Sequence record: OR885871
Strand: one strand, 5' to 3'
Length of the DNA: 64,000 bases
From: Escherichia phage vB_EcoM_JN03
Of the stretch, positions 48,684 to 55,052 are shown piece after piece. How positions within the stretch are numbered: the first letter of the stretch is position 1; each line of letters starts with the position of its first letter. A program made the translations under genes and the position numbers. The notes beneath the pieces were generated by a model. The model was not told where the DNA came from. It saw only the letters and a list, made by a program, of their open reading frames with translations, and searched no databases.

Positions 48684-49205
48684 TTAATTCCTTACTTTGT
48701 CTGGGTTGGATAAGATTTGTTCGTATCCGACTTCGCCTTGATCGTCGAAAACATGCTGAAGAATCGCCATATCGTCTACCATCCGATAAACTTCAATTCC
48801 AGCGTTCATCAATTTTTTGATTCCATCCATGATACGATATGGCTCTTGATAATATACTTTATCGATCTTGCCGTTGTCGATGATCTTCTGAGTGCAATCA
48901 GGGCATGGGCTATGTGTCACAAACATAACCAACCCTGTGAAATCATCTGCATTTTCGGGGATACGCATTAGAGCATTTTCCTCCGCATGAATGACACACG
49001 GGTTTGTAACAATTTGCCCGTGTTGTTCCATCTCACAAACATTCGGCATGCCAGGAGGCGTTCCGTTCCATCCGATAGCCACAGGCTGATCAGTTTCAGG
49101 GTTTACGATAACACAACCGACTTGCAGACGCCGTGCATAACTGGTTACACCATATGCTGCAGCTGATCGCATATGGGCGAACATCATACGTGGTTTGATA
49201 GCCAT
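48684..49205 (-). CDS. dCMP deaminase
   Basis: Zinc motifs HAEENA and PCPDC. Confidence 0.75.
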   Translation of the reverse strand: MAIKPRMMFAHMRSAAAYGVTSYARRLQVGCVIVNPETDQPVAIGWNGTPPGMPNVCEMEQHGQIVTNPCVIHAEENALMRIPENADDFTGLVMFVTHSPCPDCTQKIIDNGKIDKVYYQEPYRIMDGIKKLMNAGIEVYRMVDDMAILQHVFDDQGEVGYEQILSNPDKVRN

Positions 49206-49522
49206 TATTTTATCAGAGCCTTTTCAAGTAAAAAGATCATGTCATCCTGGTCGGCGCGGCCAAAGATCTGACCGAGGGACACCATGGAATGAACCTCTTT
49301 GACAATCAGGTCTTTGCCTGTTACACCGCTGTTGTCCAATTCGAGAATTGTAGACATGCGCTCAACCATATGAGGTGGATGATTGATATAACGTTGAAGA
49401 TACTTTTCACGCAACGCAATTTTTTCGATAAGATCTGACATTTCTGCATTCTCTTCTGAATACAGACGTTCTTTAGATTTCAGTTCTTCGAGGCGTTCGT
49501 ACATTTCTTTTAATGAAATCAT
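49205..49522 (-). CDS. hypothetical protein
   Basis: RBS GGGAGAGA before ATG 49522. Confidence 0.35.
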   Translation of the reverse strand: MISLKEMYERLEELKSKERLYSEENAEMSDLIEKIALREKYLQRYINHPPHMVERMSTILELDNSGVTGKDLIVKEVHSMVSLGQIFGRADQDDMIFLLEKALIK

Positions 49523-49543
49523 GTTTGTCTCTCCCAATAAATT

Positions 49544-49566
49544 AAGGGGAAGTATACCTTCCCCTT
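49544..49566 (-). terminator. rho-independent terminator
   Basis: AAGGGGAAGG-loop-CTTCCCCTT then T-rich on minus strand. Confidence 0.5.
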
Positions 49567-49585
49567 TCTTCAATAACCTAAAATA

Positions 49586-49936
49586 TTATTCAGTACATGC
49601 TTTACCGAGGTCTGTAAGCCTATAGAATGTTACTTCAGACTTCGGCCAATGCTTATACTCTTCAGAGTTGTCATGAACCATTGTAAACGCAGGTTCTATC
49701 AGACCTTTAGACAACAAGGATTGACCTGAACGCGTATCCCATGGATCACCCTTTACAGAACGAAACCCGCCAGATATCGGTGGCGCATGAAAAGTCCAAA
49801 CCGTTTTCCCTTTATCGTTCGTCCAAGATTTGGGATTGAAATACCAATGACAAAGGCGTCTGGCTTCACCTTTTTCAAAATTCAACATTCCTAAAAGGAC
49901 GCAGAGTTGATGTCCTGTGATGCGTGGCTTTTTCAT
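49586..49936 (-). CDS. hypothetical protein
   Basis: ATG 49936 overlaps upstream stop (ATGA). Confidence 0.35.
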   Translation of the reverse strand: MKKPRITGHQLCVLLGMLNFEKGEARRLCHWYFNPKSWTNDKGKTVWTFHAPPISGGFRSVKGDPWDTRSGQSLLSKGLIEPAFTMVHDNSEEYKHWPKSEVTFYRLTDLGKACTE

Positions 49937-50265
49937 AAGATCCCCAAGTCGGTAAGGTAACGATAAAACAAGATTATAGACAGAAATCCAATTAACACCC
50001 AAGACGACAGGATGGGCTTGCAATTTAGCGTAGTCTTTCCATTGGGTATGTTGGGACTTCCAGTAATAACAACCGAATCCGTTTTAGCTCTCAGCGTCAT
50101 GACAGAACCCATGAGGATGATTGGGCGCACATAATGCCCTTCATGATTGCGCTTCACGATACATGGTGAAGAAAATCGCAGAAACGGATCACCGCTTTTA
50201 TAACCAAATAACTCGACCTTTTGTATTTCTTCGGGTACTTTCTGACCAGGAAAGAATATTCTCAT
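49933..50265 (-). CDS. hypothetical protein
   Basis: ATGA-coupled to metallophosphatase gene. Confidence 0.35.
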
Positions 50266-50822
50266 AACACAATTCCTAAATTTGTGTATAATAACTCAGC
50301 CAGGGTTACAGGACGCTTGAATTGTTCCCAACTGCAGTTCAGGTATTCGCGCTCTTCGCGAATATTGTCGTGAAGATGACCATGGATATTATACGCCCAA
50401 CGGTCTAATTGATAAGGAACATGTGTTGTCAACACACGGCCAACAGGCGTGTCACGTTCATACATAGCGCCGAAGGAGCTAATCCAGCCGTCCAGATACA
50501 GAGACAACAACATCTTAAAGCTGTCATGGTTGCCTTGTGCCACCTTGATGATAAAGTTCGGACGCCAGTCATCGGGAACGGGGCGTCGCTTAAACTCATC
50601 AATGTTTCGCTTGGCACCCTCCCGCATCAGGCGAATGAACCCTTCAGCCCCGATGAAGCATATATCACCAGCCAGTTCAAGAACGTCCCGAGACTTCAAC
50701 CCCTGAAAGATACTGTCAATGACCGCAGCGTCATGGGCTTCCTGTGTATCAAATCCACGCGGTTTAAAGACCTTCTTATGCCCAAGATGAGTGTCACCAA
50801 GGTGCTTTACAATTCCCGCCAT
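50262..50822 (-). CDS. calcineurin-like metallophosphoesterase
   Basis: GDTHLG, GNHD and GHLH motifs; RBS GAGGAA before ATG 50822. Confidence 0.55.
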
Positions 50823-51163
50823 TATGGTTTCCTCAGCCATTCTAAAATCGGCACGTCCACAAACCCTTTATGCCAACGATGCGGTTTGTGACCTCTATTA
50901 TGTTCGAGCAAACACGTGTCTGGTGGGACACTGAAGTGGATGCCTTCGATGTCGTAGTAATGTCCGTCAATCAGAGTATACACATGACCTTCGATCTGAC
51001 TGTAATGGATCTCTGCTTGAGGATACACATGCTTCAGAACCAGAGCAACCTGATAGCACTTTCCGTTCTTCCCAACATACTCAACATCCACCTGTTGTGG
51101 GAAGACGTCTTTGATAAGATTTATCAATCTCGTGATGTCATTTACAACAACCGAACATTTCAT
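50822..51163 (-). CDS. hypothetical protein
   Basis: Coupled ORF, His-rich. Confidence 0.35.
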
Positions 51164-51165
51164 CT

Positions 51166-51828
51166 CTATGATAACTCATGGCGATGTCGAACACACGCAG
51201 GGCAATCACAATTCTTTTTCAAAATTGGCAATTCACACCATGTCATTAAGTCATGTATTGGGGACATGTGATGATAGAACCAAGATTTCTTGAGACTAAT
51301 CAATGGATATAAAATTTCAATAGGTCTTTCCCCGTCTCTGGTCATCATGTTGTACCCTTCAATGACTTTATTAAAGGCGGGTATCCAGTGTATTGCGTCA
51401 TCGCCGTTAACATATGCCAAGATATACGTGGAAGGCAAGCCGCTGCCTTTAAATTGCGTGTTTAATAACCATATCGGGGCTTGTGCTAAACAAGCGCGAA
51501 AACCACCGTTCGGGACGTTGATGCTACTGATAGGTTCTTGATGATGTGTCCAACGATACATGAGAAGTGGGGCATTTTTATTAATCCAGTTGTGTATTTT
51601 ATTCCTCGCCCAATTTTCGCGCTTAGATTTAAATTTATTATTTTCGAGGTGGCAATACACAGTATGAACTGAATATCCTTTCGATAACAACCAAATCAAC
51701 ATGTATGTGCTATCCACCCCACCAGACCAGAACAACGTCACTTCTTGATTATTCTGCGGCAATGGAGCATCCCCTTGAAGAACACGGTATACAAAATCAC
51801 AATCAGATACTGAGACAACAATTTCCAT
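51166..51828 (-). CDS. PP-loop ATPase, QueC-like
   Basis: PP-loop SGGVDST; C-terminal Cys cluster C-x9-CDCPAC. Confidence 0.4.
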   Translation of the reverse strand: MEIVVSVSDCDFVYRVLQGDAPLPQNNQEVTLFWSGGVDSTYMLIWLLSKGYSVHTVYCHLENNKFKSKRENWARNKIHNWINKNAPLLMYRWTHHQEPISSINVPNGGFRACLAQAPIWLLNTQFKGSGLPSTYILAYVNGDDAIHWIPAFNKVIEGYNMMTRDGERPIEILYPLISLKKSWFYHHMSPIHDLMTWCELPILKKNCDCPACVRHRHELS

Positions 51829-52124
51829 TAAAATATTCCTCTTAAAGAATCATTTATCCTGCGCAATTCGTTTTCCACTTTTATCTTCATATTTTTATCG
51901 TCGTTCACGAAAATCATTTTATCTAAATCTTCGCCATTAATCTTTGTATAAAAATAAATGTCATGCTCAAAGAAAATCGTTTTTCCAACAGAACGCATGG
52001 CAAAGAACGTTGCAATAGTTCTTGGTAAAGGTTTGAATTTAATGGCATTGAAACGCAAAGCCTGATAGAGAGGTTTTAATGTTCCTAAGCGAATACAATG
52101 CTGGATAATTTCTTGCTCTTTCAT
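51828..52124 (-). CDS. hypothetical protein
   Basis: TAATG-coupled. Confidence 0.35.
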   Translation of the reverse strand: MKEQEIIQHCIRLGTLKPLYQALRFNAIKFKPLPRTIATFFAMRSVGKTIFFEHDIYFYTKINGEDLDKMIFVNDDKNMKIKVENELRRINDSLRGIF

Positions 52125-52180
52125 TTGTTGTGCGCCATAAAGATATGATGGTACAATGATAATACATTATACAAATAGAA

Positions 52181-52198
52181 AAGCCCCTTTCGGGGCTT
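52181..52198 (-). terminator. rho-independent terminator
   Basis: AAGCCCC-TTT-CGGGGCTT then TTTTCTATTT on minus strand. Confidence 0.5.
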
Positions 52199-52487
52199 AT
52201 TTGTCTTCAGATTCGTACAAACGCCAATTGCCGATGCTAAACCATTCCCCCACATTATTTGAATATCTGGTTGTTCGGACTCCTCCGACTTCATACGCCC
52301 ATTTGAAGAATTTCCATTTGGACGATAAAGAAGGACATTCGCTTCCGGATTTCAAAGAACACGCTGTGAGCCAACGCGTAATACTGAGAGCCTGAAAAAT
52401 CGGATGGATAAATGAAGAATACAATATCCAAAGCGTTATGGCAACAAAAACAATGGTCGTGATCACCCCGACAATTTGAAAGAACAT
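52197..52487 (-). CDS. small membrane protein
   Basis: RBS GGAGG 7 nt before ATG; N-terminal TM. Confidence 0.35.
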   Translation of the reverse strand: MFFQIVGVITTIVFVAITLWILYSSFIHPIFQALSITRWLTACSLKSGSECPSLSSKWKFFKWAYEVGGVRTTRYSNNVGEWFSIGNWRLYESEDK

Positions 52488-52563
52488 TTAAGAACCTCCA
52501 AAATATTGAACACAGACTATGAAGAAAACTATGATTGTAAACAACCATGAAACAAGGAAAGAT

Positions 52564-53196
52564 TCATCCTTCCACCTTCAGCCCCATCAGGTCTTCCATG
52601 GTTTTCTGAATGCGTAGCCAGTCAAGCGCCGCATCATAACGAGGGTCATGATAGATCATACCTTCCAGTTCCCACGCCTTGATACCAGCATATCGATCCT
52701 GCTGCCCAATACCCTTCAGCCAGCTTACGATGTCAAATGTGTGGTGATAGTCCCAAGGTTCGTTGGAATCTTGCTTACACGTCACCTCAATGATGTGCTG
52801 AGCCTTGCGTAGGTCAAACAGATTCCTATCACACCAGTCAACCGATCGCGGGTCGATCCCAAGGCGATGGCATCCCTTGCGAATTTCATCGGCCAATTTG
52901 AAAATAGAAATATCCTTGTCGGTCGGATATAGACTGATAGCTCGGGCGGCGTCGCACGGGTTGCGTTTACCTGTACCCAGCCACCATTCCACAGTGCCCT
53001 GGTCTTTCACACGGCCAAGTTCAATCTGTTCTTTGACATTCAGTTTGATAAATGTCGTGCGCTCTACAACAAGCTGCTGAAGAGTATAACGCTTGGTCAG
53101 GTCGGCGATAGTCTGTGCCCAAGACAACATGACAGCATCATCCCAACGACCGAGAGTTTCGCTATCAGCGACGGCCAAGAAATTAGATTTATACAT
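52564..53196 (-). CDS. DnaQ/DEDD-type 3'-5' exonuclease-like protein
   Basis: AVADSETLG (DxE-type) and YHHTFD (H-x4-D-type). Confidence 0.4.
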   Translation of the reverse strand: MYKSNFLAVADSETLGRWDDAVMLSWAQTIADLTKRYTLQQLVVERTTFIKLNVKEQIELGRVKDQGTVEWWLGTGKRNPCDAARAISLYPTDKDISIFKLADEIRKGCHRLGIDPRSVDWCDRNLFDLRKAQHIIEVTCKQDSNEPWDYHHTFDIVSWLKGIGQQDRYAGIKAWELEGMIYHDPRYDAALDWLRIQKTMEDLMGLKVEG

Positions 53197-53533
53197 CAGT
53201 TTCCCCTGCTTTCTCTAAAAGGAGTTTCAAAGGATATGTCCCACAAGCGGTGGCATACTCGACTTTGAAATATGAATTATCGTTCATGGCGAAATTGCGA
53301 TGTGGGAAATATTCCCCGTCATCCAACCCGCCTAATCCCCCGCCGACGCGATATTGTTTTAACTCGACTTCGCCGCCATAACGGAGTTGGGCATATAGGC
53401 CGATAGGAGCGCGAACATAATGCTCCAGCCATACCCAATTTCCATCGTGTAAACGTGTAGGGATAAATGCAAAACGCACCTTGGGATGAAGAACGGCTTT
53501 GGCGAGCATCTCTTCTGTTATTTCACGCTTCAT
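53189..53533 (-). CDS. hypothetical protein
   Basis: Coupled ORF. Confidence 0.35.
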   Translation of the reverse strand: MKREITEEMLAKAVLHPKVRFAFIPTRLHDGNWVWLEHYVRAPIGLYAQLRYGGEVELKQYRVGGGLGGLDDGEYFPHRNFAMNDNSYFKVEYATACGTYPLKLLLEKAGETDV

Positions 53534-54150
53534 CCAATACCTTCCTCTTCGATGATATCTTCTTCACTAGCGACGACAGAGATTCCGTGGTCTACCATCT
53601 GGGAAAGTTCTTGTAAATCTTGTTCAAACCCGTCACCCTGTCGGATATAAAAGACGGGTACGACACGACGCCTGGTATCTTCGAAGATAGTCTCCGCGAT
53701 TTTATTAATCTGACTCACCACGTGAAACAGTTTTAATCCACCGATGCCACAGCCGATGGCGGGTAAACCAACATAGACTGTTTCGTCAGTTTTTGCCTCA
53801 ATGATATCGTGAACTTGTTCAAACATAATCTGAACTGAACTGATAATGGAAGGCATGCGTGCGTTAGGACCAGGGTAGAACTGAGTATACAAATTGAATC
53901 CCCAGACACCAGTGTCATGATCAAACGCATAGGACATGTTCCCCAAACGTTGTTCCGGACCACGTTCATCTAATTGGTCGGCTCGGTAAATTTCTGGGAA
54001 ATCTAATCGAACATGGTTGGCGATACCTGCGCCCATCACAGACCAACAATTTGCGCCATGAGCGAAAGCATTGATGAGATTAAAACTCGTAGCGGCTTTC
54101 AGTAAATCGCCGTTTGTGATAACATATGTGGTCATGCGTAACGTCTCCAT
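53530..54150 (-). CDS. macro-domain (ADP-ribose binding/hydrolase)-like protein
   Basis: INAFAHGANCWSVMGAGIA and GLPAIGCGIGGL resemble macro NAAN...GGGV and P-x-I-G-x-G motifs. Confidence 0.4.
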   Translation of the reverse strand: METLRMTTYVITNGDLLKAATSFNLINAFAHGANCWSVMGAGIANHVRLDFPEIYRADQLDERGPEQRLGNMSYAFDHDTGVWGFNLYTQFYPGPNARMPSIISSVQIMFEQVHDIIEAKTDETVYVGLPAIGCGIGGLKLFHVVSQINKIAETIFEDTRRRVVPVFYIRQGDGFEQDLQELSQMVDHGISVVASEEDIIEEEGIG

Positions 54151-54638: not shown

Positions 54639-55052
54639 TCAATAGAGGTCTTCGGAAAAGAGTTCTTTGAAAGGAGTGTTCTTCAAACGGACCTGATTAG
54701 TTTGTCCGGCTTCACGAGCGACCACAGCGGCCTCTTCACGGGACATCCATTGCCCATAGTTATCAATAAACCCTTGTTCACGAGTGTGGGTGGTTTCGAT
54801 AATACCTGCTTCCTTCAATCGTTTGAGTTGCGTGTTCATCAATTTGTCGTGATGTCGGGCGCTTACAACGATCACATCACCATATTTGTTGGCAGCAGCC
54901 ACAACACGCCGATCAAACTTGGTTGGGTCAGGTATATCACGAGTATACAATGCGATGTGAGTGTCGTCCACGTCCCCTTTCACCTCAGAATATAACCGAC
55001 ACCCATTAGGAGATCCAGTAGGTAAAGAACGAAAATATCCAAGTAATTTCAT
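54639..55052 (-). CDS. hypothetical protein
   Basis: 137-aa ORF. Confidence 0.35.
   Translation of the reverse strand: MKLLGYFRSLPTGSPNGCRLYSEVKGDVDDTHIALYTRDIPDPTKFDRRVVAAANKYGDVIVVSARHHDKLMNTQLKRLKEAGIIETTHTREQGFIDNYGQWMSREEAAVVAREAGQTNQVRLKNTPFKELFSEDLY

Follow-up and report, generated by a model that had tools for sequence, protein, structure and literature searches.

A stand-alone QueC-clade protein of Kuttervirus phages is probably an enzyme other than a preQ0 synthase

Introduction

What does a QueC-like gene do in a phage that carries no other recognisable gene of a deazaguanine pathway? The question is raised by an open reading frame (ORF) of 220 amino acids (aa) in Escherichia phage vB_EcoM_JN03 (sequence record OR885871), located in a stretch of 64,000 nucleotides that was analysed as a whole and is referred to here as the window (Table 1). 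The 5 kb around the ORF (positions 49000-54000) share 99.4% identity with Salmonella phage moki, which belongs to the genus Kuttervirus in the Ackermannviridae (ViI-like phages). In RefSeq the moki orthologue, gp156, is named 'QueC-like queuosine biosynthesis', a name derived from PHROG 1550, and the ORF itself matches phrog_1550 over its full length (E 4e-82). The same protein also goes by the names alpha hydrolase, argininosuccinate synthase and adenine nucleotide alpha hydrolase in other records, or is listed there as hypothetical.

Automated pipelines have applied the queuosine label in more than 100 Ackermannviridae genomes, several of them belonging to candidate biocontrol or therapy phages, and the label invites the wrong inference that the DNA of those phages is modified with deazaguanine. 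The orphan status of the gene is already on record. Hutinet et al. (2019) described singleton 'QueC' proteins in two ViI-like phages, SFP10 of Salmonella and ECML-4 of Escherichia, each with the same gene as the one treated here (phrog_1550). In similarity networks the singletons had no connection to QueC, and the authors left them aside as probable members of a different subgroup of N-type ATP pyrophosphatases. The SFP10 orthologue is 97.7% identical to the JN03 protein, and the ECML-4 orthologue, annotated as QueC-like, is matched by a distant member of the family. The viral group is absent from the analysis in a 2026 survey of PF06508 (PMC13329287). Because the orphan status was in the literature, the present result is a refinement of knowledge and not a discovery; what is new is the residue-level test, the size of the family and its restriction to viruses, and the replication-module context.

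We favour, with modest confidence, the reading that the gene encodes a stand-alone, catalytically competent viral enzyme of the QueC clade whose substrate pocket has been rebuilt and which would not act as a synthase of 7-cyano-7-deazaguanine (preQ0). Such a protein is most likely an adenylate-forming ligase or amidotransferase that works on its own and takes a substrate other than 7-carboxy-7-deazaguanine (CDG). Beyond the corrected annotation, the analysis sets apart a large and essentially virus-only enzyme family, built on a scaffold recently found in the nucleobase-protein conjugation of bacterial immunity. Working out its reaction could bring to light a viral metabolite, modification or form of counter-defence not seen before.

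Results and discussion

The protein belongs to the QueC clade but lies outside the preQ0-synthase family

An earlier note on this DNA had described the ORF as a QueC-like ATPase with a pyrophosphate-binding loop (PP-loop) and a QueC-type cysteine cluster, a description that stands apart from two details. The SGGVDST motif is present, though it spans residues 35-41 and does not lie about 45 residues in, and the C-terminal cysteine cluster is likewise present with a first spacer of x8 (C198-x8-C207-D-C209-P-A-C212) in place of the x9 originally given. The doubt that the note expressed over family assignment was well placed. Curated models detect the P-loop only: Pfam QueC (PF06508) scores 23.9 bits against a cut-off of 22 and covers just residues 33-64, while Pfam ThiI and MnmA score 22.3 and 17.2 bits, respectively. 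The NCBIfam QueC equivalog TIGR00364 fails, at 18.5 bits against a cut-off of 150.3, and a search of the PDB with the single ORF sequence gave no significant match.

Profiles built from homologue alignments were more informative. An exhaustive search over 1.84 billion cluster representatives placed at least 2,693 of them in the family at E<=0.001 (1,354 at E<=1e-10), and among the matches listed most are proteins of 200-300 aa. When a profile made from 56 spread-out family members was searched against the PDB, full-length alignment was obtained only to QueC (3bl5, E 4.8e-13; 2pg3, E 9e-11) and to Cap9 of type IV CBASS (cyclic-oligonucleotide-based antiphage signalling system; 9nto, E 4e-9), with matches to the remaining PP-loop enzymes confined to the P-loop. 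Since full-length alignment extends only to QueC and Cap9, we regard the protein as a divergent branch of the QueC clade; it is a member of that clade and stands outside the preQ0-synthase family. The family signature comprises [WF]SGGxDST, NNxxKxxxE, QxPxW, YVxxDD, P-x5-K and the zinc motif CE-x8-C-x(1,2)-C-x2-C, and every signature position is present in the ORF. A distant member, encoded at the viral locus L064, likewise matches phrog_1550.

The same searches bear on the idea that the protein modifies bases in the manner of TilS, ThiI or MnmA, which would mean adenylating an exocyclic oxygen in a tRNA or DNA base and then transferring an amine or sulfur to it, with phage or host tRNA or replicating phage DNA as the target. 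Beyond the P-loop, however, the profile matches QueC and Cap9 only. RNA-binding domains such as THUMP or TilS-C are missing from the QueC-like proteins, as are Fe-S or persulfide cysteines other than the four zinc ligands. The extensions of ten long family members (302-462 aa) hold no Pfam domain save one weak helix-turn-helix, C-terminal extensions included, and liquid chromatography-mass spectrometry (LC-MS) of ViI-like DNA has disclosed no extra abundant base. We consider this type of base modification unlikely.

The gene is under strong purifying selection

Orthologues of the ORF occur in 195 phage records. Identity exceeds 90% within Kuttervirus (91-98% in ViI, CBA120 and CBA6, all of which carry the gene), is 55-62% in phages of Klebsiella, Enterobacter, Serratia and Shigella, falls to 37% in Erwinia phage phiEa2809, and is lower still in Vibrio phage YC. 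We compared the ORF with an orthologue of the ViI/STML-13-1 type (L015:6001-6663) whose protein is 91% identical and in which 61% of synonymous sites differ. At this level synonymous sites are nearly saturated (proportion differing, pS, 0.61), and the ratio of nonsynonymous to synonymous substitution (dN/dS) is 0.03. The combination of 91% protein identity with 61% synonymous difference indicates that the two types separated deep within the genus while the protein stayed very strongly constrained. The ORF is a real gene under strong purifying selection.

These values speak to whether the protein might have lost its activity and survive as a relic, or keep no more than the fold for a purely structural or regulatory purpose. 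In keeping with a relic, more than 10 years of Kuttervirus genomics have assigned the gene no function and many records call its product 'hypothetical'. Against it stand the low dN/dS and the retention of the PP-loop, the Asp motif, K181 and the zinc ligands, which are 96-99% conserved in family members down to about 25% identity, and we judge a relic to be highly improbable.

Most residues that recognise the deazaguanine base have been replaced

Mutagenesis of E. coli QueC has established that Y35, R99, Y131 and Y189 are each needed for queuosine formation, the R99A variant being inactive, and the same study defined a canonical QueC signature (Libby et al., 2026; PMC13329287). We aligned the E. 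coli and B. subtilis QueC proteins to the family model and scored conservation over 203 diverse members, which reach down to about 25% identity.

Much of QueC is retained. The viral protein shares with it a length of about 220 aa and a Rossmann-type PP-loop fold, and the SGGxDS loop is kept (S35-S40, aligned to S9-S14 of E. coli QueC; 96-99% conserved). So are the equivalents of QueC E42 (E71; 98%) and K165 (K181; 99%) and the four cysteines of the zinc ribbon (C198, C207, C209 and C212, aligned to C188, C197, C200 and C203; 97-99%). D143, aligned to the Asp of the QueC ETD motif, is 99% conserved and the nearby Y139 97%. At the position of the essential Y131, which stacks on the base in QueC as Y115 does in Cap9, the ORF has W148, and an aromatic residue is found there in about 85% of the family.

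The other three of the four essential QueC residues are replaced (Y35→L, R99→Q, Y189→E). R99 corresponds to Q116 in an ungapped segment, and Gln occupies this position in 95% of the 203 members; the adjacent N100 becomes A117, followed by family-conserved P118 (69%) and W120 (84%). Y189 corresponds to E199 in a segment anchored by cysteines, with Glu in 96% of the family. Y35 aligns with L61, a position that is Ile or Leu in about 80%. From the YxQxHxxE motif of QueC only the final Glu (E71) persists, Q37 and H39 being N63 and S68, and in its place the family has NNxxKxxxE (N63 85%, N64 91%, K67 84%, E71 98%). The PDC of the QueC YPDC motif is I149-P150-A151, with Asp at position 150 in 30% of the family. 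The zinc spacing C-x8-C-x-C-x2-C is one residue short of the QueC pattern C(x)8CxxCxxC, having CxC where QueC has CxxC, although most of the wider family has CxxCxxC. A 28-residue N-terminal extension further distinguishes the viral protein from QueC.

The crystal structure of Cap9 gives these replacements a context. Cap9 binds the deazaguanine through the Tyr and Asp of its YxDC motif and the Arg of its RN motif; R86, the equivalent of QueC R99, stacks on the deazaguanine and D117 forms a hydrogen bond with it. The counterpart of this base-binding Asp in the viral protein is Pro150.

Such a pattern can be set against the alternative of a functional QueC that works on host-made CDG, supplying 7-amido-7-deazaguanine (ADG) or preQ0 for queuosine in host or phage tRNAs or for a DNA transglycosylase that has escaped recognition. 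Among families of solved structure QueC is the nearest in profile comparisons, and the PP-loop, the zinc cluster, the E42 and K165 equivalents and an aromatic residue at Y131 are all kept. Yet the equivalog model is missed by more than 130 bits, Gln and Glu stand in place of R99 and Y189 in 95-96% of the family, and Pro has replaced the base-binding Asp in the JN03 protein.

The gene has no deazaguanine pathway around it

The earlier note had found no DpdA/TGT-like (tRNA-guanine transglycosylase), QueD, QueE or FolE gene in the window, and this held over a wider scope. DpdA, FolE, QueD and QueE of phage 9g and Tgt, QueA, QueD, QueE and FolE of E. coli had no tblastn match at E<=1 in the 64-kb window, in the complete moki genome, or in 80 viral loci with family members and 6-kb flanks. 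The annotation of the whole moki reference genome also lists no DpdA/TGT, QueD, QueE or FolE. The viral gene differs in this respect too from QueC, being unlinked to queD and queE.

Published work agrees. Every phage known to have deazaguanine DNA encodes a DpdA (Cui et al., 2023; PMC10516641). LC-MS of digested DNA from ViI, CBA120 and CBA6 gave only the four canonical nucleosides and 5-(2-aminoethoxy)methyl-2'-deoxyuridine (5-NeOmdU) (Lee et al., 2018; PMC5889632); trace levels of deazaguanine nucleosides are possible. The proposal that the ORF serves a deazaguanine DNA-modification pathway encoded elsewhere is not supported, given a reference genome that contains none, a missing DpdA signature and published LC-MS devoid of deazaguanine.

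A second proposal of the note, that the protein relies on host precursors, is a matter of CDG use. Salmonella and E. coli hosts make CDG through the queuosine pathway, and the reference genome has a tRNA-Asn gene (GUN anticodon), as a functional QueC that serves queuosine formation could require. The host, however, already has a QueC, DpdA and Tgt were not found by tblastn, ViI-like DNA shows no deazaguanine, and the singletons lack any connection to QueC in similarity networks (Hutinet et al., 2019). Use of host CDG is unlikely because the CDG-recognition residues are replaced, and a functional QueC strikes us as improbable.

A role in the hypermodification of thymidine to 5-NeOmdU was set aside as unnecessary. 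The genes reported for that pathway encode a hydroxymethyltransferase, a kinase, two aGPT-PPlases and a pyridoxal phosphate-dependent decarboxylase; these five enzymes suffice, and the primary papers include neither a PP-loop enzyme nor QueC.

Comparison with the immune proteins Cap9 and QatC

Two bacterial defence proteins share the QueC scaffold. The likeness to Cap9 (PDB 9nto), a ligase that forms amides where QueC forms a nitrile, is most evident in the zinc motif, which starts with 'CE' in both proteins (E199 being the conserved Glu) and with 'CY' in QueC; the Cap9 motif reads CE(x)6CxxCxxC (PMC13329287). Cap9 differs in retaining F/YxQ, RN and YxDC for CDG, whereas the viral protein has Q116 for the Arg and W148-I-P150 for YxD. 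The Cap9 gene also adjoins those for its CD-NTase substrate and for the TGT-like Cap10, whereas the viral neighbours are a 98-aa ORF, a YunG-like gene and a phosphoesterase. The PADLOC model of Cap9 type gives the viral protein a weak 26 bits over residues 25-82.

QatC of the QatABCD system (PDB 9vlk) resembles the viral protein in being a QueC-family member that keeps the ATP and zinc sites while its nucleobase-recognition residues are remodelled. It differs in its size of about 400-465 aa with N- and C-terminal extensions, its own motifs, its need for QatB and its bacterial origin. The PADLOC QatC model has no match to the 220-aa ORF at E<=1, and qatA, qatB and qatD are not among the neighbouring genes. 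QatC and the viral family are only marginally similar in sequence, with an E-value of 0.36 when the profile was searched against the PDB and a PADLOC score of 14.5 bits for one relative.

These comparisons frame a further alternative, in which the protein is a counter-defence against Cap9 or QatC that consumes or diverts CDG or miscaps the N-terminal glycine of the CD-NTase or QatB, or else attaches a small molecule to a protein of phage or host much as Cap9 does. It is opposed by the loss of the Arg and Asp that bind CDG, by the lack of any partner ORF common to the clades and by weak PADLOC scores (26 bits for the Cap9 type, 14.5 bits or less for QatC). The fixed place of the gene in a replication module of another clade, described below, looks more like housekeeping. 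We think this alternative quite unlikely.

A virus-restricted family with a replication-module context

Among 185,579 cellular genomes (one per species), no match to the Kuttervirus-type pattern was found. A broader pattern applied to the same genomes yielded ten weak loci, nine on contigs of metagenome-assembled genomes and one on a 4.2-Mb metagenome-assembled chromosome. The viral QueC-like family is essentially restricted to viruses.

A scan of IMG/VR recovered 80 loci, which fall into 42 groups at 60% identity. Clustering of neighbours revealed a fixed module in 14 to 23 independent groups of uncultivated viruses, with the QueC-like gene between those for an SNF2 helicase and a family-B DNA polymerase (PolB). 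The order is SNF2 helicase, 120-aa ORF, QueC-like gene, PolB of about 1,230 aa, 211-aa ORF, Nudix hydrolase and 79-aa ORF, as seen at L028:757-9400, at L064:3900-12500 and at about 25 other IMG/VR loci (including L033, L040, L045, L050 and L082). This uncultivated clade is large and AT-rich, with contigs that range from 7 to 365 kb. The best cultured match of its PolB is that of a Salinibacter phage at 23% identity, and its QueC-like protein has no close cultured relative either. A crAss-like identity for this clade was rejected, as the literature offered no match and neither protein has a close cultured relative. Other carriers of the gene include jumbo phages of Ralstonia, Burkholderia and Pseudomonas, where it lies among hypothetical genes.

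Comparison of neighbours found no gene conserved across clades, immediate neighbours varying from one clade to another. The idea that the protein has a constant partner, as Cap9 has in CdnD and QatC in QatB, was rejected when the three small Kuttervirus neighbours proved non-homologous to the 120-aa ORF (hhalign probability 0.1%). An ammonia-generating partner was rejected as well: the 'amidase' encoded upstream of the orthologue in Vibrio phage YC belongs to the peptidoglycan amidases (PF01510) and has no relation to the 137-aa Kuttervirus protein called 'C-N hydrolase superfamily' in reference records (54639..55052, minus strand), for which there is no Pfam match at E<=0.01, so that this name looks unsupported.

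A proposed reaction for the viral enzymes

The protein keeps its ATP-binding, Asp and zinc sites and is under strong purifying selection, which speaks for an active enzyme whose reaction passes through an adenylated intermediate. The substrate is probably not CDG, given that the residues recognising CDG are consistently replaced and that no pathway partner is present. Of the three options raised in the earlier note, an amidotransferase or ligase acting in another reaction is the best supported.

In the reaction that we envisage, ATP would adenylate a carboxylate or ring-oxo group on a planar substrate different from CDG, and an amine or ammonia would attack the adenylated intermediate to give an amide or amidine, AMP and pyrophosphate. 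The reaction probably ends at this amide or amidine stage and does not go on to the nitrile. Here homology is the guide: the aromatic residue kept at the QueC Y131/Cap9 Y115 position suggests a planar substrate, and the Cap9-like Glu in place of QueC Y189 suggests an amide-forming step as opposed to nitrile synthesis. The early and DNA-metabolism genes near the Kuttervirus gene and the replication-module place in the other clade point to a role in nucleotide, nucleic-acid or infection-stage metabolism.

It is possible, though tentative, that the family carries out a reaction so far undescribed, either a Cap9-style, ATP-dependent conjugation of a planar small molecule to protein or nucleic acid or the synthesis of a new nucleotide-related metabolite. 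If so, the position between SNF2 and PolB would mean that viral DNA replication, or its protection from host immunity, depends on the product or is coupled to it.

Several points weigh against a competent enzyme with a rebuilt pocket. All the proposed chemistry is drawn from homology. A 3-residue insertion lies near Y35 in the alignment and a conserved Tyr (Y58; 82%) stands nearby, which makes the loss of the Y35 function uncertain. About 30% of the family keep Asp at the base-recognising position, and some branches may still bind a deazapurine-like base. The canonical residues are likewise missing from QatC, which according to some authors nevertheless still uses CDG. The exclusion of DpdA2-4 was made without dedicated profiles, on the basis of tblastn with DpdA1 and Tgt, annotation, LC-MS and the singleton status that Hutinet et al. 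(2019) gave to the Kuttervirus QueC. Finally, the assignment of the gene to early expression draws solely on gene neighbours and consensus terminators.

Organisation of the locus

The QueC-like gene lies in a six-gene block on the minus strand that runs from 52124 down to 49586, in which genes overlap or nearly abut and which two strong terminator-like hairpins flank (Table 1). Its ATG overlaps the TAA stop codon of the upstream 98-aa ORF (TAATG), and the downstream YunG-like gene starts 2 nt past its own stop codon. The 98-aa ORF is found only in Kuttervirus and its closest relatives, and the YunG-like gene accompanies the QueC-like gene only in Kuttervirus and in one related contig (L014). 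A metallophosphoesterase gene is also part of the Kuttervirus block, and the wider Ackermannviridae region contains genes for DexA exonuclease, dCMP deaminase, topoisomerase and a phosphoesterase. The upstream hairpin (AAGCCCCGAAAGGGGCTT) was called on both strands; in the region as a whole, 13 terminator-like sites were observed where shuffled sequences led us to expect 5.5.

Table 1. Features of the QueC-like gene and its surroundings (positions refer to the window)
Feature	Position	Strand	Remarks
QueC-like ORF, 220 aa	51166..51828	minus	ATG start; orthologue of moki HYQ36_gp156, phrog_1550
PP-loop S35-G-G-V-D-S-T41 (SGGxDS pyrophosphate-binding motif)	51706..51726	minus	Read from sequence
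N63-N64-x2-K67-x3-E71, family-specific motif	51616..51642	minus	Alignment and conservation
Q116-A-P118-I-W120, at the place of QueC VPxRN	51469..51483	minus	Alignment and conservation
Y139-V-N-G-D143-D144, then W148-I-P150	51376..51414	minus	Alignment and conservation
Zinc-ribbon cluster C198-E199-x7-C207-x-C209-x2-C212	51193..51237	minus	Alignment and conservation
Shine-Dalgarno AAGAGGA, 8 nt 5' of the QueC-like ATG	51837..51843	minus	Read from sequence
98-aa ORF, upstream, translationally coupled to the QueC-like gene	51828..52124	minus	No Pfam match
113-aa 'Phage YunG-like' gene, downstream	50822..51163	minus	Pfam PF24591 at 1.2e-43
Terminator-like hairpin, inferred upstream boundary of the gene block	52181..52198	minus	Consensus scan alone
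Terminator-like hairpin, inferred downstream boundary of the six-gene block	49544..49566	minus	Consensus scan alone

Two further observations concern the surroundings of the block. A 206-aa ORF (53530..54150, minus strand), T4 Tk.4-like according to the reference record, matches no Pfam family at E<=0.01 and contains a GANCxxVMGAGIA stretch that resembles a macro-domain motif by eye alone. The Kuttervirus relatives aagejoakim, rabagast, EP75, S115 and ST-W77 align to 49000..54000 in two to three pieces that span 5,369-5,494 bp, as against 5,001 bp here. JN03 and moki lack an insertion of about 370-490 bp that these relatives have, and RefSeq gives the name 'phosphoheptose isomerase' there.

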